Assembly: GCA_035472495.1 (NCBI GenBank)
Contig: DATIPD010000006.1
Coordinates: 37,312 to 101,311 of the forward strand
Reading direction: 5' to 3'
Source of the DNA: Pyrinomonadaceae bacterium
Lineage (GTDB): Bacteria > Acidobacteriota > Blastocatellia > Pyrinomonadales > Pyrinomonadaceae
Length of the DNA: 64,000 nucleotides
Position 1 is the stretch's first letter, and every line of letters begins with the position of its first letter. Positions 10,497-55,305 of the stretch are shown here, one piece after another. Below the pieces are notes generated by a model. That model was given only the letters and a program-made list of their open reading frames with translations. It was not told where the DNA came from and made no database searches. A program made the translations under genes and the position numbers.

Positions 10497-10660
10497 GTTG
10501 GCTCCTAAGTTGATTCGTCTAAACGTGGGAAGAGTATACGCTGCGAAGCGGAAGATGGTTTAACCGTGCAACAGAAGACTCAAGCAGTTTAGAGTTTAAT
10601 CTTTAGCTTGTCCGTACCTAACGACACAACCTGAAGGTTGAACCCCGAACTCTTTGACGA

Positions 10661-39872: not shown

Positions 39873-41180
39873 ATGGCTCGCAGAAGATTTCGCAGCAACC
39901 AGCGGCACGAACCCTCCACCGAGCGTTCTTTCCAGGAGTACTACCTCTCCACGCCCGCCCCGCAAACTTCCAGAACAGAACTTCTCCGACTAATCCGTGG
40001 GGGCGAAGATACGTTCCTCGAACTCAAAGTAAAACTCTCGAACCCCGAGAAGATCGCGCAGGAAATTGTGGCCCTCGCGAACACTGGTGGCGGTGTCATC
40101 GTGTTTGGTGTCAACGACCAACTGCGAATCGAGGGCGTCGATAATCCGGAAAGCGTGCAGGAAGAGTTGGTGCGCATTTGTCGCGAAGATATCGAACCTC
40201 CGCTCGTTCCGTTTATCGATCGCATTGCGTTTGACAGCGGACGTCGCGTAGTCGCGCTTGATATTGAAGGACGACGACGGCCATACCGCACCAGCGACGG
40301 CCGCTTTTTCCTGCGGCTCGGTTCAGAAAAGCGTGAAGCGACGCGCGAAGAACTCTCGAGTTTGATCGATGAATCGCAACCGCTCGGCTTGGAAAACTTT
40401 CCGGTTAGCGACGCGACGATGGCCGACATCGACGAAGGAAATCTGTGGAGTTTTCTGCGCGAATTTGAAGGCGACGTTTTCGAGAAACCTGGTACCAAAG
40501 GCTACCCAACAGCAGAGGTGCTCGAGCGAGATCTGTTACTGGCGACGGAACGCGCCGGCGAGTTAGTGCCAACAGTTGCGGGTCTGTTGCTGTTTGGGCG
40601 CAACGAACGAGTTAAAGAGTTATTGCCACGCGCCGCAGTAACCGCCACGAGGTTTGCCGGCGATACAAACCAGTCGCCAGTCGTTGAACGAATCAGTATC
40701 GAAGGAAATCTGCACACGCTTTACGAGAGCACGCTTCGTTTCATCAAACGCTACTGCGATCTTTGGGAGACCCGGCCGAAGGGTGCGCCCGCGACTGAGA
40801 CGGAAAATAGTCCCGTGGCCGCGCGCTCAAATTATCAGGGCGGCGCAGTCTGCGAGGCCATTGCTAATTTGTTGGTTCATCGTGATCTGGCTCTGCGCGA
40901 GCAAACGTCACGAGTCAACGTGTTTGACCACTCGATTGAGTTCGTCAACCCACGACGCACTTCCGGCTTTGCTCCTATAGCACAAAAGGCGATTCGCTAT
41001 GGCGTGCCGCAGCGTCTCAATCCGCAGACGGCCGGAATCTTTTCCAATCCGGCGTATGGATTGAAATTGCCGCATGGCGGCCTGCCCATGCTGCTGCGCT
41101 CGAGCCGCATTTTTTCTAATCGACGATCGGAGCTGAATGCGATCAACGATGAGTTTCGGCTGCGATTGCATGGGAGCTGA
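39873..41180 (+). CDS. AlbA_2 (Schlafen-like) / HATPase_c_4-type putative DNA-binding regulator
   Basis: GEDTFLELKVKLSNPEKIAQEIVALANTGGGVIVFGV is typical of the AlbA_2 divergent AAA domain. The C-terminal region is ATPase-like. Confidence 0.6.
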   Translation: MARRRFRSNQRHEPSTERSFQEYYLSTPAPQTSRTELLRLIRGGEDTFLELKVKLSNPEKIAQEIVALANTGGGVIVFGVNDQLRIEGVDNPESVQEELVRICREDIEPPLVPFIDRIAFDSGRRVVALDIEGRRRPYRTSDGRFFLRLGSEKREATREELSSLIDESQPLGLENFPVSDATMADIDEGNLWSFLREFEGDVFEKPGTKGYPTAEVLERDLLLATERAGELVPTVAGLLLFGRNERVKELLPRAAVTATRFAGDTNQSPVVERISIEGNLHTLYESTLRFIKRYCDLWETRPKGAPATETENSPVAARSNYQGGAVCEAIANLLVHRDLALREQTSRVNVFDHSIEFVNPRRTSGFAPIAQKAIRYGVPQRLNPQTAGIFSNPAYGLKLPHGGLPMLLRSSRIFSNRRSELNAINDEFRLRLHGS

Positions 41181-46184: not shown

Positions 46185-46458
46185 AGACAGGCTGCGCGCT
46201 GACAGTAACTGCGCACCGTGAGGACAAAACTTCAATGTTGACGAACTGGACAAATATTAAACACACCGCGAGACGGCAGAGATCCGCCGCCATGCGTGGC
46301 GTGTGTTTAAAAGTCGGTCTGGGCTTGTCACCTGTCAATAGTATTTACGGCAAACTCGGAGAACCGACGCGGTTCATAGATAGCCGTCAAATCAAGTACT
46401 AGTTAGCGGGAGCGGACTCCCGCTCCCAAATCTCAAAGAAAAATCGCGAGAATAGTAG

Positions 46459-46507
46459 GAGCGGGCAGCTTCCCTGGGAGGCCTAAAGCCCGCTCTTATT
46501 GTTTTTT
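46459..46507 (+). terminator. intrinsic-terminator-like hairpin
   Basis: Outer stem GAGCGGGC/GCCCGCTC around an inner CTTCC/GGAGG helix, followed by TTATTGTTTTTT. Confidence 0.5.
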
Positions 46508-46675
46508 GACAATCGAAATATCTTTTGCGAGAGATGAAGGCAGGGAGCCTTCGCCGGATGACGACGCTGTTGCGTTGCGAGCGTGTCGAGCGTCGCCATC
46601 CTCAGGAGAAGTGTGCCTCGAAGTGTGTTCGCGGAACGTTTCTCTCTGCCTTCATCTATTTTTTAGCACAACGAG

Positions 46676-46816
46676 ATCGGAAATCTGAAATCGCAAGTTT
46701 TGAGTTCGAGTTTTGAGATCGAGTATTGAGATTCTGATGCTTGTGATCTGAGATTGGAGATCTGAGGTTGAAATTTGAGATCTGAGATACCTGAGATCTG
46801 AGATCTGAGATCTGAA
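46676..46816. repeat. Fam-I tract of GAGATCT(G) words (tandem and inverted)
   Basis: Includes ...GATCTGAGATTGGAGATCTGAGG... and CTGAGATCTGAGATCTGAGATCTGAAG, ending 10 nt before the first tRNA. Confidence 0.65.
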
Positions 46817-46825
46817 GTTTCACTC

Positions 46826-46911
46826 GCATGCGTGGCCGAGCAGCAAAAGCACCTGACTGTAAATCAGGCGTCATCACGACTTCGTAGGTGCGAGTCCTAC
46901 CGCATGCGCCA
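46826..46911 (+). tRNA. tRNA-Tyr (GTA), long variable arm
   Basis: Acceptor GCATGCG/CGCATGC, anticodon arm CCTGA-CTGTAAA-TCAGG, T arm GTAGG-TGCGAGT-CCTAC (atypical G55), G73 and CCA encoded. The D stem is weak. Confidence 0.75.
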
Positions 46912-46917
46912 ACGGTA

Positions 46918-46993
46918 GTCCAAAGTTCAACGTCGAAAGTCCAAAGTCCGTTTGGGTTACAAGACTTTGGACTTTGGACTCGAGACATTGGAC
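46918..46993. repeat. Fam-A (GTCCAAAG) palindromic hairpin
   Basis: Arm GTCCAAAGTTCAACGTCGAAAGTCCAAAGTC and inverted arm GACTTTGGACTTTGGACTCGAGACATTGGAC, between tRNA-Tyr and tRNA-Trp. Confidence 0.8.
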
Positions 46994-47001
46994 TGGCTTT
47001 G

Positions 47002-47076
47002 AGGGATGTAGGCTAACTGGCAAACCGTCGGTCTCCAAAATCGACTTTCTCGGTTCAAATCCGGGCGTCCCTGCCA
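47002..47076 (+). tRNA. tRNA-Trp (CCA)
   Basis: Acceptor AGGGATG/CGTCCCT (one G:U), anticodon arm TCGGT-CTCCAAA-ATCGA, T arm CTCGG-TTCAAAT-CCGGG, G73 and CCA. One D-stem mismatch. Confidence 0.7.
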
Positions 47077-47089
47077 AATAAACTTTCCT

Positions 47090-47178
47090 GGAAGGCCCGA
47101 CAGTAGAGTGCGTCAAGCAGTCCCGAAAACTGCGGCGGCCAAAAGCCGTGTACGGTTCGACTCCGTAGCCTTCCGCCA
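47090..47178 (+). tRNA. tRNA-Ser (CGA), long variable arm, C33
   Basis: Acceptor GGAAGGC/GCCTTCC, anticodon arm GCAGT-CCCGAAA-ACTGC, long variable arm, T-loop TTCGACT, G73 and CCA. The D arm is atypical. Confidence 0.6.
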
Positions 47179-47181
47179 TTT

Positions 47182-47267
47182 GGAGATGTCGCCTAACTGG
47201 TAAGGCAGCGCCCCGCTAAGGCGCCGGGAGCAATCCTGTGAGCGTTCGAATCGCTCCGTCTCCGCCA
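47182..47267 (+). tRNA. tRNA-Ser (GCT), long variable arm, C33
   Basis: Acceptor GGAGATG/CGTCTCC, D stem GCCT/AGGC, anticodon arm GCGCC-CCGCTAA-GGCGC, T arm GAGCG-TTCGAAT-CGCTC, G73 and CCA. Confidence 0.7.
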
Positions 47268-47271
47268 AAAC

Positions 47272-47347
47272 GGGGTTGTAGCTCAACGTATAGAGCGCCG
47301 GTCTGCGAAGCCGGAGGCTGATGGTTAGAATCCATCCAATCCCACCA
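47272..47347 (+). tRNA. tRNA-Arg (GCG)
   Basis: Acceptor GGGGTTG/CAATCCC, D stem GCTC/GAGC, anticodon arm CCGGT-CTGCGAA-GCCGG, T arm GATGG-TTAGAAT-CCATC (A56), A73 and CCA. Confidence 0.7.
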
Positions 47348-47352
47348 CTTCT

Positions 47353-47426
47353 TCCGAGTTCGTCCAATGGCAGGACGGGTGACTTTGAATCACTAAATCG
47401 GAGTTCGAATCTCTGACTCGGAACCA
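47353..47426 (+). tRNA. tRNA-Gln (TTG)
   Basis: U1:A72 acceptor TCCGAGT/ACTCGGA, D stem GTCC/GGAC, anticodon arm GGTGA-CTTTGAA-TCACT, T arm CGGAG-TTCGAAT-CTCTG, A73 and CCA. Confidence 0.8.
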
Positions 47427-47430
47427 ATAC

Positions 47431-47546
47431 GATTGCGGATTGCAGAATGCTGGTGGATCTTCAATCCAGCTGACGACTGGTTGCTGCCCGACTATTCAAC
47501 AAGAATCGAGTCGACTGAAACAAAATCCGCATCAGCAATCACCAAT
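47431..47546. repeat. Fam-E (GATTGCGG-type) imperfect inverted repeat
   Basis: Left arm GATTGCGGATTGCAGAATGC..., right arm ...AAAATCCGCATCAGCAATCACCAATC. Confidence 0.55.
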
Positions 47547-47620
47547 CCTAAATCGCCAGCTAGAAGAGCGATCGCTTTCTAAGCGGTAGGTCAACAGTTC
47601 GAATCTGTTTAGGGTCTCCA
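47545..47620 (+). pseudogene. degenerate tRNA-Arg (TCT)-like unit
   Basis: 76 nt with good anticodon arm ATCGC-TTTCTAA-GCGGT, T arm AACAG-TTCGAAT-CTGTT and a terminal TCCA. The acceptor and D stems do not pair in the canonical register. Confidence 0.3.
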
Positions 47621-47625
47621 TCTAT

Positions 47626-47703
47626 GGCCACGTAGCCCAATCGGCATGAGGCGCCAGTCTTAGAAACTGGTCAGTGAGAGTTCGAATCTCTCCGTGGCTA
47701 CCA
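47626..47703 (+). tRNA. tRNA with Leu anticodon TAG on a short-variable-arm scaffold
   Basis: Acceptor GGCCACG/CGTGGCT, anticodon arm CCAGT-CTTAGAA-ACTGG, 5-nt variable loop, T arm GAGAG-TTCGAAT-CTCTC, A73 and CCA. Confidence 0.6.
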
Positions 47704-47707
47704 CCAT

Positions 47708-47784
47708 GCTCGCGTGATGCAATCGGCAGACATCGGAGTTTCAAAAACTCTGTTTTCTCCGTTCGAATCGGAGCGCGAGTACCA
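47708..47784 (+). tRNA. tRNA with Leu anticodon CAA on a short-variable-arm scaffold
   Basis: Acceptor GCTCGCG/CGCGAGT, anticodon arm GGAGT-TTCAAAA-ACTCT, 5-nt variable loop, T arm CTCCG-TTCGAAT-CGGAG, A73 and CCA. Confidence 0.6.
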
Positions 47785-47789
47785 ACTGC

Positions 47790-47869
47790 GGCGCGGTACG
47801 CAAATCAAGGCAAAGCGGTCTGACTTAAAATCAGATGTTATGAGAGTTCAATTCTCTCCCGCGCCACCA
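47790..47869 (+). tRNA. tRNA with Leu anticodon TAA on a short-variable-arm scaffold
   Basis: Acceptor GGCGCGG/CCGCGCC, anticodon arm TCTGA-CTTAAAA-TCAGA, 6-nt variable loop, T arm GAGAG-TTCAATT-CTCTC, A73 and CCA. Confidence 0.6.
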
Positions 47870-47875
47870 GGCTCT

Positions 47876-47952
47876 GGCGATGAATGCGAAATGGAAAGCA
47901 GGCTGATTTTCAATCAGTTGATTTGCGGGTTCGAGTCCCGTCATCGCTGCCA
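47876..47952 (+). tRNA. tRNA-Glu (TTC)
   Basis: Acceptor GGCGATG/CATCGCT, anticodon arm GCTGA-TTTTCAA-TCAGT, T arm GCGGG-TTCGAGT-CCCGT, G73 and CCA. Confidence 0.75.
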
Positions 47953-47967
47953 GTAAGCTGGCCGGGC

Positions 47968-47994
47968 GCCCGTGGTCTGGCCGAGCGGTTCTAT
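47968..47994 (+). other. orphan tRNA 5' fragment (acceptor plus class-II-type D arm)
   Basis: GTGGTCTGGCCGAGCGGTTCTA resembles the 5' third of a Ser/Leu-type tRNA. It abuts tRNA-His with no anticodon or T arm. Confidence 0.4.
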
Positions 47995-48070
47995 GTTGGC
48001 CGTGGCCGAGTGGCTGAGGCGCGTGACTGTGACTCACGCTACGAGAGTTCGATTCTCTCCGGTCAACCCA
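47995..48070 (+). tRNA. tRNA-His (GTG) with encoded G-1
   Basis: G-1 opposite C73, acceptor TTGGCCG/CGGTCAA, anticodon arm CGTGA-CTGTGAC-TCACG, T arm GAGAG-TTCGATT-CTCTC, CCA. Confidence 0.75.
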
Positions 48071-48076
48071 ATACCT

Positions 48077-48154
48077 TAGTTTCGAGTTTCAAGTTCCAGG
48101 TTTCAAGGCACAAAGTTTCTGCACTTTGAACCTCCAACTTGGAACTCGAAACTA
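48077..48154. repeat. Fam-K palindromic hairpin (GTTTCGAG/CAAGTTCC words)
   Basis: Arm TAGTTTCGAGTTTCAAGTTCCAGGTTTCAAGGC and inverted arm GCACTTTGAACCTCCAACTTGGAACTCGAAACTA. Confidence 0.7.
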
Positions 48155-48159
48155 TTCCT

Positions 48160-48234
48160 GGAACTGTGGCCGAGAGGTGAGGCACTTGGTTGTCAACCAA
48201 GCCGATGACGGTTCGAGTCCGTTCAGTTCCGCCA
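48160..48234 (+). tRNA. tRNA-Asp (GTC)
   Basis: Acceptor GGAACTG/CAGTTCC, anticodon arm CTTGG-TTGTCAA-CCAAG, T arm GACGG-TTCGAGT-CCGTT, G73 and CCA. Confidence 0.8.
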
Positions 48235-48244
48235 TCTGTCTGGA

Positions 48245-48301
48245 GAGACATTCCTGTCTGTCCGCCGTTTTTTGCGGGACAGGCAAGAATGCCTGTCCTA
48301 C
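48245..48301. repeat. Fam-F (GACAGGAATG/CCTGTCCTAC) hairpin
   Basis: CATTCCTGTCTGTCCGC pairs with GCGGGACAGGCAAGAATG. A second copy lies at 51052-51112. Confidence 0.7.
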
Positions 48302-48304
48302 CTC

Positions 48305-48380
48305 GCTTCCGTAACTTAACTGGCAAAGTGTTGGTCTCTTAAACCAGAAGATGTCGGTTCGACGCCGACCGGAAGCACCA
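48305..48380 (+). tRNA. tRNA-Lys (CTT)
   Basis: Acceptor GCTTCCG/CGGAAGC, D stem ACTT/AAGT, anticodon arm TTGGT-CTCTTAA-ACCAG, T arm GTCGG-TTCGACG-CCGAC, A73 and CCA. Confidence 0.85.
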
Positions 48381-48387
48381 AATTTTT

Positions 48388-48460
48388 TGCGGAGAGAATG
48401 GGTATTCAAGTAGGTCTCATAAACCTTCCTTCGTCAGTTCAACTCTGGCCTCCGCAACCA
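48388..48460 (+). tRNA. tRNA with CAT anticodon (elongator Met or Ile2-type), atypical D arm
   Basis: U1:A72 acceptor TGCGGAG/CTCCGCA, anticodon loop CTCATAA on a 4-bp stem, T arm GTCAG-TTCAACT-CTGGC, A73 and CCA. The D arm is non-canonical. Confidence 0.5.
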
Positions 48461-48527
48461 ATCTCGTAGCGCTGAATCCCCTCCAACGACAACGCAAATT
48501 ATCAGTTTGCGTTACAGAACGTTTTAT

Positions 48528-48604
48528 TCAAGCGACCGATGTGGGCTGTCGGTGTCCGCCTGTTAAGCGGAACGTCGTGGGTTCGAGTCCCACCGCTTGA
48601 GCCA
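48528..48604 (+). tRNA. tRNA-Asn (GTT)
   Basis: Acceptor TCAAGCG/CGCTTGA, anticodon arm TCCGC-CTGTTAA-GCGGA, T arm GTGGG-TTCGAGT-CCCAC, G73 and CCA. Two extra nt lie between the D and anticodon arms. Confidence 0.65.
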
Positions 48605-48619
48605 AAACTCCTTGTTCTT

Positions 48620-48697
48620 GCTCGCGTACCGGTCTCCGCTTCTAACGGAGTAGCCGTAACTGGAAAGATGCGGGTTCAACTCCTGCCGCGAGCACCA
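48620..48697 (+). tRNA. aberrant tRNA-Arg (TCT)-like gene with D-arm-like sequence after the anticodon arm
   Basis: Acceptor GCTCGCG/CGCGAGC, A73 and CCA, anticodon arm CTCCG-CTTCTAA-CGGAG, T arm GCGGG-TTCAACT-CCTGC. No D arm is in the normal place; TAGCCGTAACTGGAAAG sits in the variable position. Confidence 0.35.
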
Positions 48698-48701
48698 CTT
48701 T

Positions 48702-48794
48702 CTTGGCGTAGCACAAATGGCAGTGCGGCAGGCTTATACCCTGTGAGCTCCAGATTAGAGCGCGATCCAGGTTCGAATCCTGGCGCCAAGACCA
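48702..48794 (+). tRNA. tRNA with TAT anticodon (AUA reader) on a long-variable-arm scaffold
   Basis: Acceptor CTTGGCG/CGCCAAG, D stem GCAC/GTGC, anticodon arm GCAGG-CTTATAC-CCTGT, 22-nt variable arm, T arm CCAGG-TTCGAAT-CCTGG, A73 and CCA. Confidence 0.55.
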
Positions 48795-48798
48795 CAAC

Positions 48799-48877
48799 CG
48801 ATTTCGGATTGACGATTGCAGATTGCGGATTGAGGCAACTGATTAATCGGAGATCCGCGATCGCCAATTCCCAATCG
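48799..48877. repeat. Fam-E (GATTGCGG-type) palindromic hairpin
   Basis: Arm GATTTCGGATTGACGATTGCAGATTGCGGATTG and inverted arm AATCGGAGATCCGCGATCGCCAATTCCCAATCG. Confidence 0.7.
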
Positions 48878-48882
48878 TTTCG

Positions 48883-48957
48883 GCTCCTATGGCGTAACTG
48901 GCAACGTAGCGGACTTTTAATCCGCGGTTCAGAGTTCGAGTCTCTGTGGGAGCACCA
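48883..48957 (+). tRNA. tRNA-Lys (TTT)
   Basis: Acceptor GCTCCTA/TGGGAGC, anticodon arm GCGGA-CTTTTAA-TCCGC, T arm CAGAG-TTCGAGT-CTCTG, A73 and CCA. Confidence 0.85.
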
Positions 48958-49059
48958 ATTGATTGCGGCTTTCGGAATGCGGATTTCGGATTTGAAAACA
49001 AGCGAAAACTATTAAGTCTTCAACTTCGCAATCCGAGTCCCAGCAATCCGCAATCGAAA
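48958..49059. repeat. Fam-E palindromic hairpin
   Basis: Arm AATTGATTGCGGCTTTCGGAATGCGGATTTCGGATTT and inverted arm CTTCGCAATCCGAGTCCCAGCAATCCGCAATCGAAA. Confidence 0.7.
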
Positions 49060-49060
49060 C

Positions 49061-49133
49061 GGCCGCGTGATGTAACGCAACATGCTCGCCCGATTAGCGA
49101 GTCTTCCGGGTTCAAATCCTGGCGCGGCTACCA
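49061..49133 (+). tRNA. tRNA-Ile (GAT), C33
   Basis: Acceptor GGCCGCG/CGCGGCT, D stem ATGT/ACAT with a 6-nt loop, anticodon arm CTCGC-CCGATTA-GCGAG, T arm CCGGG-TTCAAAT-CCTGG, A73 and CCA. Confidence 0.6.
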
Positions 49134-49184
49134 ACAATTCGAATTCCCCAACTTTTCAACTATTCTTAAGAAAGGAGAAAGCAA

Positions 49185-50363
49185 ATGCCTTACGAAAAGC
49201 TACCTATCGGTGGCGCCCGCAACGAGATTCTCTCGTGGGCCAACCACGACTTCAGCATCGAGGAACAGTCGATGTTGCGCAACGTTTCGCGATTGCCTTG
49301 TCTGTTCAAACATGTGGCGCTGATGCCTGATGCACACTTGGGCAAAGGCAGCATGGTTGGTTCAGTCATCGCTACGAAACAAGCGGTGATTCCGGCAACG
49401 GTCGGCGTCGACATCGGCTGCGGCATGATGGCGGTGAAGACACCGTTCAAGAGCGGCATCCTCGACGGAAAGTTGAAGGAGCTGCGCCTCGCGATCGAAG
49501 AAACAATTCCGGTCGGCTTCAACGCGTACAAAGAATCGGTTGACGAGTCTTCGTACTGGGACGGCTGGAAGGAATTTGGTGAACTGCATCAGGGCGTGCA
49601 AAGTCGGAAAGTGAAAGCGATGACGCAGCTGGGCACGCTTGGTGGCGGCAATCATTTCATCGAAGTTTGTCTGGACACAGAAAACTTCGTTTGGTTGATG
49701 CTCCACTCAGGTTCACGCAATATCGGCAAGGAGTTGGCAGAACGTCACATCTCGACAGCCAAGGGCTTGTGGCAACTGAATGAACTGCCTTCACCCGATC
49801 TTGCTTACTTCGTGCAGGGCACGCCGGAATTTGCGGCGTACTGGAAAGACTTGAAGTGGGCCCAGGGTTACGCGATGAAGAATCGCGAAATCATGATGAC
49901 GCGACTGTTACAGGTCTTCAACAAGTTGTTCAATCATCGTCAGCCCTTCAAGCCGGAACTTCAGGTTAACTGCCATCACAATTACGTTGCGCTCGAGGAG
50001 CATTACGGCGAGAAAGTTTTCGTCACCCGCAAGGGCGCAATCAATGCGGACAAAGACGCATTCGGCATTATTCCCGGCTCGATGGGCGCGAAATCGTTCA
50101 TCGTGCAAGGCCGCGGACTGGCGGAGAGTTTTAATTCCTGCTCTCACGGCGCTGGTCGCAAGATGTCGCGCGGTGCAGCCAAGCGAACTTTTAATAAGGA
50201 CGACCTGGCTCGACAAACTGCGGGCGTCGAATGTCGCAAAGACGTAGGCGTGCTGGATGAAATTCCTGGCGCTTACAAAGACATCAAAGCGGTGATGCGC
50301 AACCAGAGCGATCTGGTAAAGATCATTGCCGAGATCAAACAAGTGGTGTGTGTGAAAGGCTAG
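49185..50363 (+). CDS. rtcB: RNA-splicing/repair ligase RtcB
   Basis: 392 aa with RtcB motifs GVDIGCGM, GGGNHFIE, HSGSRNIG, NCHHNY, PGSMG and SCSHGAGR. RBS AAAGGAGAAA lies upstream. Confidence 0.92.
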   Translation: MPYEKLPIGGARNEILSWANHDFSIEEQSMLRNVSRLPCLFKHVALMPDAHLGKGSMVGSVIATKQAVIPATVGVDIGCGMMAVKTPFKSGILDGKLKELRLAIEETIPVGFNAYKESVDESSYWDGWKEFGELHQGVQSRKVKAMTQLGTLGGGNHFIEVCLDTENFVWLMLHSGSRNIGKELAERHISTAKGLWQLNELPSPDLAYFVQGTPEFAAYWKDLKWAQGYAMKNREIMMTRLLQVFNKLFNHRQPFKPELQVNCHHNYVALEEHYGEKVFVTRKGAINADKDAFGIIPGSMGAKSFIVQGRGLAESFNSCSHGAGRKMSRGAAKRTFNKDDLARQTAGVECRKDVGVLDEIPGAYKDIKAVMRNQSDLVKIIAEIKQVVCVKG

Positions 50364-50430
50364 TCCAAAGTCCAACGTCCAAAGTCAGGAATCGTCAAAC
50401 AGACTTTGGACATTGGACTCGAGACTTTGG
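50363..50430. repeat. Fam-A palindromic hairpin
   Basis: Arm GTCCAAAGTCCAACGTCCAAAGTC and inverted arm GACTTTGGACATTGGACTCGAGACTTTGG. Starts at the rtcB stop codon. Confidence 0.8.
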
Positions 50431-50441
50431 GGTCTGTCTTC

Positions 50442-50515
50442 CGGGGTGTGGTGTAACGTGAGCATCCGAGTCCTGGGAACTCGTGGCGACAGTTCAATTC
50501 TGTCCTCCCCGACCA
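50442..50515 (+). tRNA. tRNA-Pro (TGG), C33
   Basis: C1:G72 acceptor CGGGGTG/CTCCCCG (one mismatch), anticodon arm CGAGT-CCTGGGA-ACTCG, T arm GACAG-TTCAATT-CTGTC, A73 and CCA. Confidence 0.65.
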
Positions 50516-50521
50516 AATCCA

Positions 50522-50579
50522 GTCCAAAGTCCAACGTCCAAAGTCAGGATCATCAAACAGATATTGGACCTTGGACTTT
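50522..50579. repeat. Fam-A palindromic hairpin
   Basis: Arm GTCCAAAGTCCAACGTCCAAAGTC and a shorter inverted arm ATATTGGACCTTGGACTTT. Confidence 0.75.
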
Positions 50580-50585
50580 CCTCCC

Positions 50586-50662
50586 GCATCGTTGGTCCAG
50601 AGGGTTCAAGACACGGCGTTGCCAACGCTGAGACACCGGTTCGAATCCGGTACGATGCTCCA
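50586..50662 (+). tRNA. tRNA-Gly (GCC)
   Basis: Acceptor GCATCGT/ACGATGC, anticodon arm CGGCG-TTGCCAA-CGCTG, T arm ACCGG-TTCGAAT-CCGGT, U73 and CCA. Confidence 0.85.
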
Positions 50663-50672
50663 ATCAATCCTC

Positions 50673-50749
50673 GTCCAAAGTCCAACGTCCAAGGTCCAAA
50701 GCCAAGAATCGATGAACAGACTTTGGACCTTGGACGTTGGACATCGGAC
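50673..50749. repeat. Fam-A palindromic hairpin
   Basis: Arm GTCCAAAGTCCAACGTCCAAGGTCCAAAGCC and inverted arm GACTTTGGACCTTGGACGTTGGACATCGGAC. Confidence 0.8.
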
Positions 50750-50755
50750 TAAGAC

Positions 50756-50832
50756 GCTTCCGTAGCTCAATTTGGAAGAGCGCGACGCTTCGAACGTCGA
50801 GGTTGTGGGTTCAAGTCCCGCCGGGAGCCCCA
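50756..50832 (+). tRNA. tRNA-Arg (TCG)
   Basis: Acceptor GCTTCCG/CGGGAGC, D stem GCTC/GAGC, anticodon arm CGACG-CTTCGAA-CGTCG, T arm GTGGG-TTCAAGT-CCCGC, C73 and CCA. Confidence 0.85.
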
Positions 50833-50836
50833 ATCC

Positions 50837-50970
50837 ATTGGCGATTTCCGATTGCCAATTGCCGATTTTCCTCACTTCAAACTTGCGTGTCCCAAAAGAA
50901 CAGCCTCACTGTTCAAACCAAAAAGAACATACACGCTAATCGGCAATTGCCAATCGGCAATCGACAATTT
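50837..50970. repeat. Fam-E (GATTGCCAATTGCCG) inverted repeat with about 65-nt loop
   Basis: Arm ATTGGCGATTTCCGATTGCCAATTGCCGATTTT and inverted arm CTAATCGGCAATTGCCAATCGGCAATCGACAATTT. Confidence 0.7.
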
Positions 50971-50973
50971 CCT

Positions 50974-51048
50974 GCGGGAGTGATGTAGCTGGCAACATGC
51001 AAGTCTTCCAAACTTGCTTCGAGAGTTCGAATCTCTCCTTCCGCTCCA
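50974..51048 (+). tRNA. tRNA-Gly (TCC)
   Basis: Acceptor GCGGGAG/CTTCCGC, anticodon arm CAAGT-CTTCCAA-ACTTG, T arm GAGAG-TTCGAAT-CTCTC, U73 and CCA. Confidence 0.85.
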
Positions 51049-51051
51049 AAT

Positions 51052-51112
51052 GTAGGACAAGCATTCCTGCCTGTCCTCTCTAACCAAAGAAGGACAGGAA
51101 TGTCTGTCCTAC
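51052..51112. repeat. Fam-F hairpin
   Basis: GTAGGACAAGCATTCCTGCCTGTCCT ... AGGACAGGAATGTCTGTCCTAC. Confidence 0.7.
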
Positions 51113-51115
51113 CTC

Positions 51116-51191
51116 GCGCGCGTCGCCAAGCGGCTAAGGCGCTGGATTGCAAATCCAGTATTCGTGAGTTCGAGTCTCACCGCGCGCTCCA
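51116..51191 (+). tRNA. tRNA-Cys (GCA)
   Basis: Acceptor GCGCGCG/CGCGCGC, anticodon arm CTGGA-TTGCAAA-TCCAG, T arm GTGAG-TTCGAGT-CTCAC, U73 and CCA. Confidence 0.85.
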
Positions 51192-51198
51192 CACTCCA

Positions 51199-51275
51199 GT
51201 CCAAAGTCCAAGGTCCAAAGTCCAAGGTCAAGAACCGCAAGACAGACTTTGGACGTTGGACGTTGGACCTTGGAC
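51199..51275. repeat. Fam-A palindromic hairpin
   Basis: Arm GTCCAAAGTCCAAGGTCCAAAGTCCAAGGTC and inverted arm GACTTTGGACGTTGGACGTTGGACCTTGGAC. Confidence 0.8.
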
Positions 51276-51299
51276 TACTCTACGAAGGGAGGTGCCGTG

Positions 51300-51878
51300 A
51301 TGGCACTTGATGGCAGAGTTCTGCTGCTAAATCAAACCTACGAGCCGCTCGGCACCGTCAGTGTGGCCCGAGCAATAGTAATGACTTTCAAGAACAGCGT
51401 CTTCGTCGAGGAATGGGACGGCGATCGCGTTCTTCATTCGGCCCGGGAGGAATTCCCGGTGCCTTCAGTAATTCGCCGACGCACTTACATCAACGTGCGG
51501 CGCCGGCGTGAACAGTCAGGGATGAAGCGACTCCGCATCTACATGCGTGACAAGTTTCGTTGTCAGTATTGCGGCGACAAGAAGACCCTGGCTGAACTAA
51601 CGCTCGATCACATTCTGCCGCGTTCGCGTGGCGGCGATAACTCGCCGCTCAACGTAGTGACAGCATGCACCGCGTGCAACAACCGCAAGTCTAACCGGAC
51701 ACCGGCGGAGGCACGCATGCCTTTGCTGACGTCGCAGTCGGCGTTGCGGGTAAAGCTCGAACGCGTTGTGCTTTGTCACTACGCCGAGGCGCGCGCTGAG
51801 TGGCGCAAGTACCTGTTCATGGACGTGCATGACGATCGCGACGTGATGGACAGGGTGGAGCGCGAAAGACGCGCGTAA
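51300..51878 (+). CDS. HNH endonuclease
   Basis: 192 aa from the ATG at 51300, with RBS GAAGGGAGG upstream. HNH motif CQYCG...LTLDHILPRSRGGDNSPLNVVTACTACNNRKSNRTP. The track start at 51249 lies inside a repeat. Confidence 0.8.
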   Translation: MALDGRVLLLNQTYEPLGTVSVARAIVMTFKNSVFVEEWDGDRVLHSAREEFPVPSVIRRRTYINVRRRREQSGMKRLRIYMRDKFRCQYCGDKKTLAELTLDHILPRSRGGDNSPLNVVTACTACNNRKSNRTPAEARMPLLTSQSALRVKLERVVLCHYAEARAEWRKYLFMDVHDDRDVMDRVERERRA

Positions 51879-51882
51879 ATTC

Positions 51883-51988
51883 ATTGCCGATTGCTGAGCG
51901 GATTGCCGATTGCCAATTGCCGGTTTCCGATTGCCTTCAATCGAACAGGCTTTTTCAAATCGGCATTTTGTACCGGGAATCGGCAATG
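51883..51988. repeat. Fam-E inverted repeat
   Basis: Arm ATTGCCGATTGCTGAGCGGATTGCCGATTGCCAATTGCCGG... and inverted arm AAATCGGCATTTTGTACCGGGAATCGGCAATG. Confidence 0.65.
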
Positions 51989-51993
51989 CGTTC

Positions 51994-52065
51994 GGTCGGA
52001 TAGCTGAGAAGGATTAGCGTGGGTCTGAAAAACCCGAGAGGTTGGTTCGATTCCAACTCCGACCG
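51994..52065 (+). tRNA. tRNA-Phe (GAA), no encoded CCA
   Basis: Acceptor GGTCGGA/TCCGACC, anticodon arm TGGGT-CTGAAAA-ACCCG, T arm GTTGG-TTCGATT-CCAAC, G73, followed by CCG. Confidence 0.75.
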
Positions 52066-52072
52066 CCGAACC

Positions 52073-52150
52073 GAAGGATGAAGGATGAAGGATGAAGGCT
52101 GAAATGAAGTGTTTTGTTTCATCCTTCATCCTTCCGCCCTCATCCTTGAT
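52073..52150. repeat. Fam-C (GGATGAAG) palindromic hairpin
   Basis: Arm GAAGGATGAAGGATGAAGGATGAAGGCTGAAATGAAG and inverted arm TTTCATCCTTCATCCTTCCGCCCTCATCCTTGAT. Confidence 0.8.
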
Positions 52151-52155
52151 TTCCC

Positions 52156-52231
52156 GCCCGAGTAGCTCAATTGATGGAGCGCTGGTCCTACAAACCAGAG
52201 GTTGAAGGTTTAAGTCCTTCCTTGGGCACCA
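52156..52231 (+). tRNA. tRNA-Val (TAC), C33
   Basis: Acceptor GCCCGAG/CTTGGGC, D stem GCTC/GAGC, anticodon arm CTGGT-CCTACAA-ACCAG, T arm GAAGG-TTTAAGT-CCTTC (T56), A73 and CCA. Confidence 0.7.
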
Positions 52232-52235
52232 AATG

Positions 52236-52304
52236 ACAGGAGGCAGGCGGCAAAGCAGGAGGCAGTAGGTTTTGCCTGTCCCTGCACCTGCCTCCTGCTC
52301 CTGA
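52236..52304. repeat. Fam-D (CAGGAGGCAG) palindromic hairpin
   Basis: GACAGGAGGCAGGCGGCAAAGCAGGAGGCAGTAGG ... CCTGTCCCTGCACCTGCCTCCTGCTCCTG. Confidence 0.7.
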
Positions 52305-52309
52305 TCTTC

Positions 52310-52392
52310 CGGGGCGTGACTCATCTCAGCAGAACGTGGACTGCCTGGGAGCGTGGAGTTAGGAGAGGCGCGCCAGCCTCACGCCCCGACCA
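52310..52392 (+). ncRNA. tRNA-sized structured element ending in A-CCA (not a canonical cloverleaf)
   Basis: 10-bp terminal helix CGGGGCGTGA/TCACGCCCCG followed by ACCA. Internal hairpins TCTCAGCAG-AACGTGGA-CTGCCTGGGA and GAGGC-GCGCCA-GCCTC. Occupies a tRNA slot between two hairpin repeats. Confidence 0.3.
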
Positions 52393-52397
52393 GTACT

Positions 52398-52478
52398 GAA
52401 GGATGAGGGATGAAGGATGAGGGATGAACCTCCAATTCCCGTACCTTCATCCCTCCGCCCTCATCCTTCATCCCTCAT
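52398..52478. repeat. Fam-C palindromic hairpin
   Basis: GAAGGATGAGGGATGAAGGATGAGGGATGAA ... TTCATCCCTCCGCCCTCATCCTTCATCCCTCAT. Confidence 0.8.
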
Positions 52479-52482
52479 TTCT

Positions 52483-52557
52483 GGGGCTATGATCTAACGG
52501 CCATGATGCCTGCCTTGCAAGCAGGACGTAGAGGTTCGACTCCTCTTAGCTCCACCA
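52483..52557 (+). tRNA. tRNA-Ala (TGC)
   Basis: Acceptor GGGGCTA/TAGCTCC with the G3:U70 identity pair, anticodon arm CCTGC-CTTGCAA-GCAGG, T arm AGAGG-TTCGACT-CCTCT, A73 and CCA. Confidence 0.85.
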
Positions 52558-52568
52558 AAATACAGAAA

Positions 52569-52656
52569 GCAGCAGGCAGGAGCAGTAGGCAGCAGTTGAG
52601 AGTCACGGTCTAGAACCAGGAACTCCCCTGCCGACTGCCGCTGCCTCCTGCTCCTG
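52569..52656. repeat. Fam-D palindromic hairpin
   Basis: GCAGCAGGCAGGAGCAGTAGGCAGCAG ... CTGCCGACTGCCGCTGCCTCCTGCTCCTG. Confidence 0.7.
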
Positions 52657-52663
52657 ACTTTTC

Positions 52664-52743
52664 GGCGATGTAGCTCAACTGGATAACAGAGCACCGGTCT
52701 TGTAAACCGAACGATAAGGGTTCGACTCCCTTCATCGCCTCCA
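52664..52743 (+). tRNA. tRNA-Thr (TGT)
   Basis: Acceptor GGCGATG/CATCGCC, D stem GCTC/GAGC with a 12-nt loop, anticodon loop CTTGTAA (first stem pair C-A mismatch), T arm AAGGG-TTCGACT-CCCTT, U73 and CCA. Confidence 0.75.
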
Positions 52744-52787: not shown

Positions 52788-53237
52788 ATGCAGCAAAAGA
52801 TATTTCGGTTGTCGTTCGACGGGCGAAGAATGCAAATCGTAAATTCATGTTCATTCGGTTTGTCAGCGGCGAAATTGATCAGGCTTCTCGTTTCGGCGGG
52901 TCTTTTCCAGGCTGCCTCCGAACTCAGGTGGCGCGACGGCCTACCTGACTACGAATTCGACGCGCTCATCGGACTGAGAGATTGGTTCAACGCTAATCTC
53001 GAATCGCCCTTTGACCACCTGCCGCGAGCGAAATGCTATGACCGAGCAATTTGCTGGTTTAAGCCTGCGGCTCGCGAACACTTGGTTCGAGCGAGAGAAC
53101 TAGTCACAATTCTTGAAAGAAACGATGTCTTGATTTGGACAATCAGATCCCGAAGGGTTGGCTACATTTATTACGAAGACGAAACACAGGTTTTGGCAGA
53201 ACCATTTAGTGATGTCAGACCAATTTGCAGGAGGTAA
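52788..53237 (+). CDS. hypothetical protein
   Basis: 149-aa ORF directly after the last tRNA. I recognise no motif. Closely followed by the DIP1984-family ORF. Confidence 0.4.
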   Translation: MQQKIFRLSFDGRRMQIVNSCSFGLSAAKLIRLLVSAGLFQAASELRWRDGLPDYEFDALIGLRDWFNANLESPFDHLPRAKCYDRAICWFKPAAREHLVRARELVTILERNDVLIWTIRSRRVGYIYYEDETQVLAEPFSDVRPICRR

Positions 53238-53242
53238 TAGAA

Positions 53243-53698
53243 ATGAAACTAGCAGAAGCTCTAATTCTACGAGCTGATTGTCAGAAGCGTTTTGCGCAAG
53301 TAAAAGCTAGGCTGCTGCTTAACGCGCGCGTCCAGGAAGGCGACCAGCCGGCAGAAGATCCGCAGAAGTTGATTACCGAAACGGAACGCCTGGCCGATGA
53401 GCTGGTTGATTTGATCAAGCGTATCAATCGCACCAACTCTGCAACAGTCGTTGACGTTGGCAAAACAATTTCTGACGTGCTTGCTGACCGTGACGTGCTC
53501 GGCTTGCGTCGTAGCGCGTACAACGAACTGGCGCAGAACGCGTCGATTGCCTACGCGCGAGTGACGCGAACGGAAATCAAATACGTTTCGACGGTGAAGG
53601 TAGTTGAGATTCAGAAGCGGGCGGATGAGCTGGCGAAGAACTATCGCGAGCTCGACGCGCAAATTCAGGAGCTCAACTGGAAGACTGAACTGCTCTAA
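53243..53698 (+). CDS. DIP1984-family (septicolysin-like) protein
   Basis: MKLAEALILRADCQKR..., INRTN and ...ELNW..EL match the DIP1984 family pattern as I recall it. RBS AGGAGG lies upstream of the ATG at 53243. Confidence 0.6.
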   Translation: MKLAEALILRADCQKRFAQVKARLLLNARVQEGDQPAEDPQKLITETERLADELVDLIKRINRTNSATVVDVGKTISDVLADRDVLGLRRSAYNELAQNASIAYARVTRTEIKYVSTVKVVEIQKRADELAKNYRELDAQIQELNWKTELL

Positions 53699-53950
53699 AC
53701 GTTCAGCGCTTGATTTAATGCAGTCGGTAGCCTGATGAACAAAAGCGAGCACAACCCGCCAACTGGGCAAGTTGGAAAAGCGCGAAAGCGCTCCACTGGT
53801 GATGTGCAGGGGCGTACATCAGCGGGTTCGATCCCCGCCGTACAACTCATGCCCAGCAAAGTGACAAGCGCAATGAGCAAAGTAAAAGTAACTACCGCGT
53901 GCTGATTTGTTTGTTTGGTGAGGGTGGGTAAGGGGAACTGCATTGCATTA

Positions 53951-54022
53951 CCAAATCCAAAGTTCAGGCCAACGTCCGAAGTTGAAAATAAGCAAACAGA
54001 CTTTGGACCCTGGACGTTGGAC
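53951..54022. repeat. Fam-A palindromic hairpin (last copy, outside the array)
   Basis: CCAAATCCAAAGTTCAGGCCAACGTCCGAAG ... GACTTTGGACCCTGGACGTTGGAC, 12 nt upstream of the AAA+ gene start. Confidence 0.7.
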
Positions 54023-54033
54023 TGAGTTTAGTT

Positions 54034-55305
54034 ATGGGCAAAGAAGATTTCATCAAGGATGCGCACTACAAACCGAACGAATACATCGCGTATTACGTTG
54101 GTCGGGAATTGTCGCGGCGACATCCGGAAAAAGCAGTTCTCGAAGGCGAAACCGGGTACTTCGACCTGGAGGCATTCGTGCGCGCCGAGAAATGCGCTGT
54201 CGTTAGCGAAGCCTCAGTCTTCAACCAAATCAAAACAGACTGGACCACGCCAGAAAAAGAGCTGCGAACCAGGATCCCAAACTCGTGGCTGAACGTTCTC
54301 TGGAAGGGCCAACTTCTTGACGTCATCTTTCTTACGTTCTCCGAAGGTTGCTACCCCACCCGTCATCATTGGATCGTTGCGGACAGCGCTGAAGTCGCCG
54401 CATCGTTTTTCACAGCGGTTTGTGAATGGTCGGCAGAGGTGCGCGGTGAAGTGCTCGTCTATGAACACGGCTTTTGGAACAAGAGCGAGGAACTTTTCAA
54501 GACGATCAAGAGTGCAACCTTTGACACTCTAATCCTGCCTGATCGTCTGAAACAGGAAATCCGGAACGACTTTGTGCAGTTTCTCGCGTCACGCGAAGTT
54601 TATGAACGCTACGGTATTCCCTGGAAACGTGGCGTTCTTCTTATTGGTCCGCCAGGAAACGGCAAGACTCACACAGTTAAAGCACTGGTGAACCAACTCG
54701 CCCAACCATGCCTTTATGTTCGCGGGTTCAAGTCGGAATATTCGACCGATCAAGAAAACATCAAGGAGGTTTTCGAACGGGCGCGCATGACAACTCCATG
54801 CATCGTGGTCCTGGAAGATCTCGACTCAATGATTGACGAAAACAGCCGCGCGTTCTTTCTAAACGAGCTCGACGGTTTTGAAACCAACAAAGGAATCGTC
54901 GTGCTCGCGACCACAAACCACCCGGAGCGTCTCGATCCGGCTATTCTTGATCGCCCCAGCCGTTTCGATCGCAAGTACTACTTCCAGCTGCCGGGAAACA
55001 ACGAACGGACTGCGTATGTCGCGCACTGGAACGAAAAGCTAAACGCGGAACTGCAACTCTCAGCGCACACCATCGAGCATGTTGTCGGAGTGACTGAGGG
55101 TTTCTCCTTCGCTTATCTGAAGGAACTGTTTTTGTCTTCGATGATGCGCTGGACCTCGACTGATCGCGTCGAATCCATGGATGAAATTGTCCGCGCACAA
55201 GTGCAGCAGCTGCGCGGCCAGATGACCAACGAGAGACGCGACGAGTCGCAGTCAGGGAAACCGAGCGGTAAGGCGGCAAAGGTGCTGCGGTTCTTGAAGC
55301 GCTAG
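54034..55305 (+). CDS. Bcs1-like AAA+ ATPase with uncharacterised N-terminal domain
   Basis: Walker A GPPGNGKTH, Walker B IVVLEDLD, SRH ATTNHPERLDPAILDRPSRFDRKYYF. The pre-ATPase segment ILPDRLKQEIRNDFVQFL...YGIPWKRGVLL resembles Bcs1. Confidence 0.8.
   Translation: MGKEDFIKDAHYKPNEYIAYYVGRELSRRHPEKAVLEGETGYFDLEAFVRAEKCAVVSEASVFNQIKTDWTTPEKELRTRIPNSWLNVLWKGQLLDVIFLTFSEGCYPTRHHWIVADSAEVAASFFTAVCEWSAEVRGEVLVYEHGFWNKSEELFKTIKSATFDTLILPDRLKQEIRNDFVQFLASREVYERYGIPWKRGVLLIGPPGNGKTHTVKALVNQLAQPCLYVRGFKSEYSTDQENIKEVFERARMTTPCIVVLEDLDSMIDENSRAFFLNELDGFETNKGIVVLATTNHPERLDPAILDRPSRFDRKYYFQLPGNNERTAYVAHWNEKLNAELQLSAHTIEHVVGVTEGFSFAYLKELFLSSMMRWTSTDRVESMDEIVRAQVQQLRGQMTNERRDESQSGKPSGKAAKVLRFLKR

Follow-up and report, generated by a model that had tools for sequence, protein, structure and literature searches.

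Why does the gene for an RNA ligase lie in the middle of a long array of transfer RNA (tRNA) genes? The question is raised by a chromosomal contig stretch of a Pyrinomonadaceae bacterium (Acidobacteriota), analyzed here over 64 kb (hereafter, the window), in which the ligase gene rtcB and a gene for an HNH endonuclease are embedded among tRNA genes. Long tRNA operons that are spread by horizontal transfer and add supernumerary tRNAs have been described as L-arrays (Santamaria-Gomez et al., PMC8421152). Starting from plain observations of gene identity, arrangement, conservation, and purifying selection, and drawing on analogy with systems studied elsewhere, we consider it probable that the locus is an acidobacterial member of this class, with rtcB and an HNH gene of the All8564 type embedded in one transcription unit that would both supply and repair tRNAs under stress.

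The array comprises 28 tRNA genes, all on the (+) strand, between positions 46826 and 52743 (5.9 kb; ARAGORN and Rfam). ARAGORN called 27 of them, 22 of which reached the Rfam gathering score in a pass over the whole window; the 28th, an atypical full-length tRNA-Arg(UCU) at 48620–48694 (36.8 bits), was missed by ARAGORN and found by Rfam alone. A truncated tRNA remnant (47558–47609) occupies the gap between the Gln and Leu genes. Direct reading of the sequence revealed an encoded CCA end on every tRNA gene of the array. Two protein genes inside it, rtcB and the HNH gene, separate three parts. Specifically, part 1 (46826–49133) holds 18 ARAGORN tRNAs in the order Tyr, Trp, two Ser, Arg, Gln, three Leu, Glu, His, Asp, Lys, Met, Asn, Ile(UAU), Lys, and Ile(GAU), together with the Rfam-only Arg(UCU) and the remnant; part 2 (50442–51191) holds Pro(UGG), Gly(GCC), Arg(UCG), Gly(UCC), and Cys(GCA), with heptamer-repeat hairpins between them; and part 3 (51994–52743) holds Phe(GAA), Val(UAC), Ala(UGC), and Thr(UGU), with long hairpin spacers. 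Such a run far exceeds in length the arrays that arise by accretion. The order of anticodons is non-periodic, i.e., without a repeating unit, and the window outside the array is ordinary chromosome with even G+C content.

The rtcB gene (49185–50363, (+) strand) encodes a 392-aa ligase of the family that joins RNA 3′-phosphate or 2′,3′-cyclic-phosphate ends to 5′-OH ends. The sequence-only reading had described this gene as complete, with its metal and guanosine monophosphate (GMP)-histidine motifs in place, and as co-directional with a tRNA-Ile-GAT and a tRNA-Pro lying about 50–80 nt away, and both descriptions held up. The protein matches Pfam family PF01139 over the full length of the domain (408 bits against a cut-off of 27; residues 31–392 on profile positions 2–426), and alignment to Pyrococcus horikoshii RtcB showed that D49, H51, D76, C79, N156, H157, H174, H265, and H321 are all conserved (D65, H67, D95, C98, N202, H203, H234, H329, and H404 in P. 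horikoshii), H321 being the counterpart of the GMP-accepting H404. The predicted activity is GTP- and Mn-dependent sealing. On the 5′ side, tRNA-Ile(GAU) (49061–49133; ARAGORN, and 44.7 bits in a local Rfam pass) is separated from rtcB by 51 nt; on the 3′ side, tRNA-Pro(UGG) (50442–50515; ARAGORN and Rfam) follows after 78 nt. An exact-protein look-up returned an identical RtcB only from a single 4.8-kb contig of the same sequence, and so no genome context was gained from it.

The 51-nt spacer 5′ of rtcB (49134–49184, (+) strand) is unstructured, with a minimum free energy (MFE) of −3.2 kcal/mol and a z-score of about 0 (−4 to −10 for other long spacers), and it carries the rtcB ribosome-binding site (TTAAGAAAGGAGAAAGCAA, then ATG), including AAAGGAG. 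The motif TTAGAAAGGAG 5′ of the ATG is conserved in all relatives examined. From the rtcB stop codon onward, a stable hairpin with arms of TCCAAAG heptamers and without a T-tract fills the other gap (50364–50441, (+) strand; MFE −29.6 kcal/mol, z −4.5 to −5.5); most relatives also have a hairpin at the rtcB stop, its structure kept and its sequence not homologous between genomes. The HNH gene (51297–51878, (+) strand; about 192 aa) starts at GTG 51297 or ATG 51300, after GGGAGGTG, and lies between tRNA-Cys and tRNA-Phe. Its product matches Pfam HNH_5 and HNH and is 37% identical to Anabaena All8564 over 146 aa (E 1e-25), a similarity that extends beyond the HNH motif.

A failure of the arrangement to recur in related genomes had been named beforehand as grounds for abandoning the proposed link between ligase and tRNAs. 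A scan in which a single genome stood for each GTDB species yielded 80 rtcB loci, whose flanks extended to at most 10 kb (numbered here with the prefix L), and same-strand arrays with rtcB turned out to recur across the Pyrinomonadaceae. The closest loci (65–92% identity) are all from Acidobacteriota, mostly Pyrinomonadaceae, and of the ~36 loci at 65% identity or above, about 27 have same-strand arrays of 6–34 tRNAs, the largest being that of L011 (34 tRNAs). Among the loci at 84–92% identity, rtcB lies inside such an array in 10 of 12, with a tRNA 31–162 nt on its 5′ side and 59–295 nt on its 3′ side; the usual junction, seen in about 10 genomes, is Lys(CUU)-rtcB-Pro(UGG). In the 65–77% group, the array is mostly just 5′ of rtcB. 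In comparison, about 40 loci from other phyla (≤58% identity) contained 0–2 tRNAs within 21 kb and no arrays. Since arrays occur at most of the Pyrinomonadaceae loci and at none from other phyla, the association is real and clade-specific and not a product of chance.

The 65–77% group (L014–L042) also shows how the unit can be anchored. In at least 12 species-level genomes it occupies one conserved chromosomal site, which reads: an opposite-strand tRNA-Pro(GGG), an AIR-synthase-like gene, the array, YrlA, rsr, rtcB, and HNH, on to cysteinyl-tRNA synthetase. The number of array tRNAs at this site ranges from 0 to 28 with rtcB and HNH retained, and among all relatives that keep both genes it ranges from 0 to 34. 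An S-adenosylmethionine (SAM) methyltransferase and three families of open reading frames (ORFs) without assigned function recur in these loci as well. ORF clustering of 41 related loci placed an HNH homolog 3′ of rtcB in 30 of them, even where tRNAs were not found. Both protein genes are under strong purifying selection: at synonymous divergence (dS) of about 1, the ratio of nonsynonymous to synonymous substitution (dN/dS) was 0.05–0.07 for rtcB (dS 0.85–1.1) and 0.07–0.11 for the HNH gene.

On the horizontal spread known from L-arrays, the observations point both ways. The chromosomal flanks differ within the 84–92% group, the upstream flank of the window being common to L004 and L005 only and the other close relatives carrying the unit elsewhere, and the presence and size of the array vary among close relatives. 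Set against such spread are the fixed site of the 65–77% group, the lack of a G+C anomaly, and the failure of our searches to find a close viral or plasmid copy. Overall, the unit looks like an old acquisition that is now largely vertical and still rearranging. In several relatives (L029, 8678–10945; L030, L031, L033, L039, and L041), RtcB is interrupted by an intein with an HNH_3 domain, inserted directly before the catalytic Cys79; the NCBIfam model RtcB_rel_intein2 covers these proteins, and the window protein matches its exteins.

Whether the tRNAs and rtcB form one transcription unit can be approached through what precedes them. A structured leader RNA of about 158 nt (46514–46671, (+) strand), delimited by alignment and folding (analysis A3), ends in a 16-bp terminal stem followed by U6, a terminator-like arrangement that encloses two internal stems; it also contains a direct repeat of GAAGTGTG. 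Although the rtcB synonymous sites of the genomes compared are near saturation, the leader hardly varies among them, and its internal stems show a few compensatory changes and tolerate inserted hairpins. A covariance model (R2) detected the leader once in each of the window, L002–L011, L013, and L017, invariably at the 5′ edge of the unit, and nowhere in the viral loci searched. No credible Rfam match was obtained for it at E-values up to 10, and no T-box motif was seen by eye. A small protein was considered and rejected, because indels of −2, +1, +40, and +42 nt between genomes break the ATG frame. Immediately upstream is a conserved non-coding region (46403–46511, (+) strand) in which we read two GGAGCGG-type hairpins (46403–46427 and 46459–46497, the second followed by a T-run) and a TTGACA box (46506–46511). 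This region is nearly invariant across six genomes (alignment A2), the motif TTTGACAAT occurs in eight of nine upstream regions, and a promoter function appears plausible for it.

The distance from leader to ligase is far from constant. No tRNAs lie between the two in L013, whose leader continues directly into the rtcB ribosome-binding site; there are 2 in L009 and L010, 3 in L002, 6–7 in L007 and L004, 11–18 in L003, L005, L006, L008, and L011, and 18 in the window. Inside the array, consensus sigma-70 promoters and intrinsic terminators were not above shuffled expectation. The strongest reason to read the locus as one unit is the leader, present once at the 5′ edge with 0–18 tRNAs between it and rtcB; together with the lack of internal promoter or terminator signals above chance and the open ribosome-binding spacer 5′ of rtcB, it supports co-expression of the tRNAs and rtcB, albeit indirectly. 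The leader itself is a candidate attenuator or, alternatively, a separate small RNA with read-through.

The spacers of the array have a character of their own. From the leader to the first tRNA runs a simple-repeat stretch of GAGATCT-type heptamers (46672–46825, (+) strand) that is not conserved between loci. Thereafter, spacers are either 3–13 nt long or hairpins of 67–251 nt (z −4 to −10) made up of repeated heptamers and the complements of these; among the long ones, the unstructured spacer before rtcB stands out most clearly as an exception. Nine of the 11 long inverted repeats of the window fall in the 6-kb array, and within the window the heptamer hairpin spacers are found only there (46912–47001, 48071–48304, 48795–49060, 50364–51296, and 51879–52663). 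The heptamers, among them TCCAAAG, GGATGAA, GATTGCG, and GCAGGAG, recur at non-homologous positions in other genomes; the spacers of L011 are mostly short. These hairpins were considered as terminators and rejected, as they have no T-tracts. Such spacers recall the heptamer short tandemly repeated repetitive (STRR) sequences of cyanobacteria.

On this basis, the unit might work as follows. Transcription would start near the conserved TTGACA box and pass through the structured leader with its very strong terminator-like hairpin, which would probably act as a conditional attenuator or else release a small RNA with read-through, and it would then continue across tRNAs, rtcB, tRNAs, HNH, and more tRNAs. 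Enzymes of tRNA processing would excise the tRNAs and thereby free an rtcB mRNA whose 5′ end would carry an open ribosome-binding site and whose 3′ end would carry a protective hairpin. By analogy with Anabaena and Salmonella, the unit would respond to ribotoxins, anticodon nucleases, or antibiotics that damage translation: it would supply replacement or decoy tRNAs, and RtcB would reseal tRNAs that had been cut to leave 2′,3′-cyclic-phosphate and 5′-OH ends. In sister genomes, rsr (Ro60) and YrlA at the end of the unit would add RNA quality control.

What the tRNAs of the array can and cannot do bears on this proposal. The array had been called a full tRNA set, which is right for amino acids, as all 20 are covered, and not for codons. 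UCU, UCC, and UCA are unreadable by the array even if every U34 tRNA reads its four-codon box; across 21 genes of the window, 2.5% of codons belong to these three, which are present in rtcB and the HNH gene too. Reading of AGA and AGG depends on whether the atypical Arg(UCU) tRNA is functional. The only call with a CAU anticodon, Met (48388–48460), has a paired G1-C72 end and therefore is not initiator-like; it lacks an Rfam match with an E-value of 0.01 or lower. The match of the Asn(GUU) call (48528–48604) to Rfam is partial and below the gathering score, so both members may be degenerate. With three codons unread and no initiator-like tRNA, the array cannot be the sole tRNA set of the cell, and relatives can dispense with it. 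In L006, Ser(UGA) is encoded both in the array and as a solo gene, with differing sequences, and solo canonical tRNAs such as Pro(GGG) and Ser(UGA) stand beside the arrays of relatives.

Some of the array tRNAs also have odd shapes. Bacterial tRNA-Leu normally has a long variable arm. In the acidobacterial arrays, all 39 of 39 Leu tRNAs are 74–80 nt long and without this arm (the three of the window at 47626–47869), as are the four of the Anabaena trn operon (75–78 nt; L086, 1554–2090), and as are 11 of the 16 Leu tRNAs in viral arrays; solo Leu tRNAs in the same data measure 85–87 nt. Conversely, a tRNA with the Ile anticodon UAU at 48702–48794 of the window has a long extra arm, and this form recurs in L005, L006, L007, L008, L011, L014, L016, and L030 and in the viral L088 and L090. 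The stem of the arm covaries between genomes, and its 7-nt loop, YAGAUNA, is kept from Acidobacteria to viral contigs. That these shapes are common to acidobacterial, cyanobacterial, and viral arrays is a hint of shared ancestry and of selection imposed by anticodon nucleases.

A further claim of the sequence-only reading was that the usual bacterial surroundings of rtcB are absent. For the window this is correct: Pfam scans found no RtcA, RtcR, or archease among ~50 of its ORFs, tblastn with the Rsr of L021 as query found no Rsr, and no YrlA was detected at the Rfam gathering score, nor any full match with a clade-specific model. The sole sigma-54 activator of the window (7209–8636) is an NtrC-type response regulator beside a histidine kinase, 40 kb away. 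A partial match to the YrlA model at 48654–48727 (24 bits, model positions 34–106) consists of a T-arm and the next D-arm, and we rejected it as a tandem-tRNA false positive of the kind Chen et al. warned of in YrlA searches (PMC4201824). As regards rsr and Y RNA, however, the absence is specific to this genome, and sister genomes have both. A Ro60/TROVE protein (Rsr, with TROVE and vWA_Ro60 domains) recurs in 11 related loci by ORF clustering, and rsr stands beside rtcB in sister loci including L005, L008, L011, L014, L016, L021, L024, L027, L029, and L041. YrlA, a Y RNA with a tRNA-like domain, exceeded the Rfam gathering score in four loci, immediately 3′ of the last tRNA, and the clade-specific model found it at full length in 11. 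As none of these 11 overlaps a tRNA call and most adjoin rsr, they agree with the guidance of Chen et al. (PMC4201824).

Sister arrays end in rsr and one or two YrlA, near rtcB, in L005 (15066–16649), L008 (11048–13266), L011 (6603–8738), L014 (13556–15552), L021 (7871–9751), L024 (2538–4623), and L027 (7212–9122). In the nearest of these relatives (L005, L008, and L011), the order is array, rtcB, array, HNH, array, rsr, and YrlA; the unit of the window stops after Thr(UGU), without rsr or YrlA. Their presence in sisters argues that their absence here reflects loss or relocation in the lineage of the window and is not a basic feature. Our literature search found no description of Rsr or Y RNA joined to tRNA arrays.

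Other explanations of the locus have to be weighed against supply and repair. The least likely, namely that the array is the main housekeeping tRNA set and rtcB a passenger in an essential operon, would suit the coverage of all 20 amino acids and the CCA ends on all tRNAs, and yet it is scarcely credible in view of the unread Ser codons, the missing initiator-like tRNA, the non-canonical Leu tRNAs (long arm missing) and Ile(UAU) tRNA (long arm present), the degenerate members, a count of 0 to 34 array tRNAs in close relatives, and the solo canonical Pro(GGG) and Ser(UGA) genes beside their arrays. Adjacency without functional meaning, in which arrays are permissive landing sites for HNH-driven or recombination insertions and rtcB is transcribed alone for general RNA repair, deserves more attention and still strikes us as improbable. 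It gains from loci that keep rtcB and HNH without tRNAs (L013, L015, L020, L031, and L033) or rtcB alone (L012), from rtcB genes unlinked to tRNAs in Anabaena, Nostoc, and Microcoleus relatives (PMC8421152; the Microcoleus loci at 63–64% identity had no tRNAs in our data), and from phage phiCbK, whose rtcB lies outside its tRNA cluster. It would leave unexplained, however, why the Lys(CUU)-rtcB-Pro(UGG) position is kept in about 10 genomes with synonymous sites near saturation, why rtcB and the tRNAs always share a strand, with gaps of 31–162 nt and no promoter- or terminator-like signal, and why the leader of L013 leads straight into rtcB where tRNAs are absent; in Anabaena, moreover, rtcB and the array are under one repressor though unlinked (PMC10272220).

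Somewhat less improbable, and in our judgment unlikely, is that the unit is mainly selfish or mobile cargo, i.e., a cassette of tRNAs, RtcB, and a homing endonuclease that came from phages or mobile elements, arose as counter-defense against host anticodon nucleases, and would persist and move by HNH homing with little or no integration into the physiology of the host. IMG/VR viral contigs do embed rtcB in tRNA arrays (L164, 7645–12170; L111, L114, and L147, ~9806–11260; L096; L117 and L121), with similar junctions (Asp-rtcB-Pro(UGG) in L164 and Lys(CUU)-rtcB-Glu in L111, L114, and L147; proteins 47–50% identical), and 701 phage records encode relatives of RtcB. An HNH gene also belongs to mycobacterial array units, which are regarded as putative anti-defense systems (PMC12803027); the rtcB inteins of several relatives carry HNH domains; chromosomal flanks differ among the closest relatives; and tRNA content is highly variable between genomes. 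A phage or plasmid vector was nevertheless not identified as the source: no viral RtcB exceeds 57% identity, and no tRNA lies within 12 kb of the best plasmid match, Nostoc pn1 (61%). Genes for integrases, phage functions, or conjugation are absent from the window, as is any G+C anomaly, and one site is conserved in the 12 or more species-level genomes of the 65–77% group. The strong purifying selection on rtcB and HNH and the high conservation of the leader point to a function at the level of the host.

The reading as a unit for tRNA supply and repair has points to answer too. Taken at face value, the 16-bp stem and U6 of the leader would stop transcription ahead of the array, and the reading therefore has to assume read-through or a second promoter; the consensus scan called no promoter at the leader, and one based on the TTGACA box could not be defined by hand either. 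Covariation in the leader is thin, with compensatory changes at 4 of 40 pairs, because the sequence is so conserved. The Met (48388–48460) and Asn (48528–48604) genes may be degenerate. L012 encodes an RtcB of 86% identity on a 10.5-kb contig that carries neither tRNAs nor leader nor HNH, and L015, L020, L031, and L033 keep rtcB and HNH without tRNAs, which means that rtcB is not strictly dependent on the array. Finally, co-transcription, inducibility, leader function, and tRNA repair are features that we infer from sequence, and redundancy with a housekeeping tRNA set is deduced in the same manner and not from a genome count. With these points taken into account, the functional proposal of the sequence-only reading still appears to be the best-supported one, its basis being comparative anatomy together with experiments in cyanobacteria and enterobacteria.

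The pairing of rtcB with spare tRNAs is not new as such; it has been published for cyanobacteria (PMC8421152, PMC10272220) and phages (PMC7824862). New are the first array of this kind noted in Acidobacteria, the conserved ~160-nt leader, and arrays that end with rsr and YrlA in sister genomes. Acidobacteria were listed among the phyla without L-arrays (PMC8421152), and our literature search found no report of tRNA arrays in this phylum. The design of an accessory-tRNA operon with RtcB is thereby extended to a new phylum, and the maintenance of the pairing under purifying selection in dozens of soil Acidobacteria strengthens the view of tRNA supply and repair as one module. The sister genomes, by joining a tRNA L-array to the Ro60/Y-RNA/RtcB repair system, bridge two literatures that we found to be treated separately, and the conserved leader RNA is a candidate regulator of the whole unit. 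We put forward a more ambitious version as a tentative possibility: in Pyrinomonadaceae, array, RtcB, HNH, Ro60, and YrlA may have been fused into one largely vertical RNA-damage operon in which the leader (46514–46671) would be a conditional terminator that senses translation or tRNA damage, as a counterpart of RtcR and TrcR, and in which the odd Leu and Ile(UAU) tRNAs would evade or decoy anticodon nucleases.

Several neighbors of the unit were recorded. At its 3′ edge lies an ORF of 149 aa without assigned function (52788–53237, (+) strand), which had no match in Pfam, NCBIfam, or PADLOC; tblastn found homologs at the same relative position in L008 (63% identity), where it sits between the last tRNA and rsr, and in L013 (53%), and its membership in the unit is uncertain. 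The region 3′ of the array (52788–55305) continues with a DIP1984/DUF6847 protein and an AAA ATPase. The latter (54034–55305) was considered as the defense ATPase IetA and rejected (84 bits with PADLOC; 70 bits with NCBIfam against a cut-off of 510; no IetS partner). On the upstream side, in the flank common to L005, a Schlafen AlbA_2-domain protein (39873–41180) has weak PADLOC similarity to proteins associated with prokaryotic Argonaute (pAgo). Elsewhere in the window are a BrnT-family ribonuclease toxin (24719–25177) and a RidA/L-PSP protein (20928–21329); the regulon table of Anabaena TrcR also has an L-PSP family gene, an overlap that is probably coincidental.

How does the locus compare with known systems? 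The rtcBA operon of Escherichia coli, under RtcR, encodes a ligase of the same family with the same catalytic residues; the rtcB of the window differs in lying among tRNAs, with no rtcA, RtcR, or sigma-54 context. The rsr-yrlBA-rtcBA operon of Salmonella Typhimurium ties RtcB to RNA damage, and specifically tRNA damage (cited in PMC4201824, PMC8421152, PMC10272220), and it resembles the sister genomes in holding rsr and YrlA in a unit with rtcB. It includes no tRNA array and has the sigma-54 activator RtcR as the sensor of damaged tRNA; the window lacks rsr, YrlA, rtcA, and RtcR.

Mycobacterial tRNA array units are similar in their 26–27 clustered tRNAs for 19–20 amino acids, redundant with the chromosomal set, and in their one conserved embedded HNH gene and differing genomic insertion sites (PMC5966550; PMC12803027). 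They differ in that RtcB is not mentioned in these two papers, in being carried on plasmids, giant linear plasmids, or phages, and in an associated non-coding RNA, GOLLD, as given by a reference cited in PMC9569102. Phage tRNA clusters with RtcB, Rnl ligases, or TROVE proteins likewise encode a tRNA set and RtcB together, and a survey of jumbo phages described tRNA sets as “supplemented” by RtcB (PMC7824862). The short form of Leu tRNA and the Ile(UAU) tRNA with a long arm occur both on viral contigs and in the window; unlike those contigs, the window is chromosome without phage genes and has a leader that was not detected in the viral loci searched, and the closest viral RtcB is 57% identical.

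The closest likeness is to the cyanobacterial L-arrays, whose paper names an HNH homing endonuclease (all8564), rtcB, and dpsA (PMC8421152). L-arrays are further characterized by silence in normal growth and by induction under translational stress (PMC8421152). In Anabaena, translation inhibitors switch on rtcB and all8564 along with the trn operon, and the authors speculated that RtcB mends toxin-cut tRNAs and that the tRNAs of the operon enlarge or buffer the pool (PMC8421152). The operon and both genes are under a shared repressor, TrcR, deletion of which raised rtcB 77-fold and all8564 17-fold (PMC10272220). This system, described as restricted to cyanobacteria, left no sign in the window, which has a structured leader in place of operator repeats. 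Comparison with the Anabaena/Nostoc sp. PCC 7120 trn operon (plasmid delta, NC_003273; L086) showed further differences: the unit of the window is chromosomal and not on a plasmid, it belongs to the phylum Acidobacteriota, and many of its spacers are long heptamer-repeat hairpins, compared with 3–10 nt in Anabaena. Common to both are Leu tRNAs without a long variable arm, a few degenerate members, and a partial gene order of Tyr, Ser(GCU), Arg, and Gln, then Leu genes. Cyanobacterial L-arrays share the long, same-strand, non-periodic operon of accessory tRNAs and, frequently though not obligatorily, a linked HNH gene of the All8564 type, and in several cyanobacteria rtcB is linked or embedded, with co-regulation in Anabaena (PMC8421152; PMC10272220). 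The homology of the HNH gene, the short Leu tRNAs, and the partial gene order therefore lead us to file the locus as a relative of the L-arrays, to which the sister genomes of the window add rsr and YrlA.

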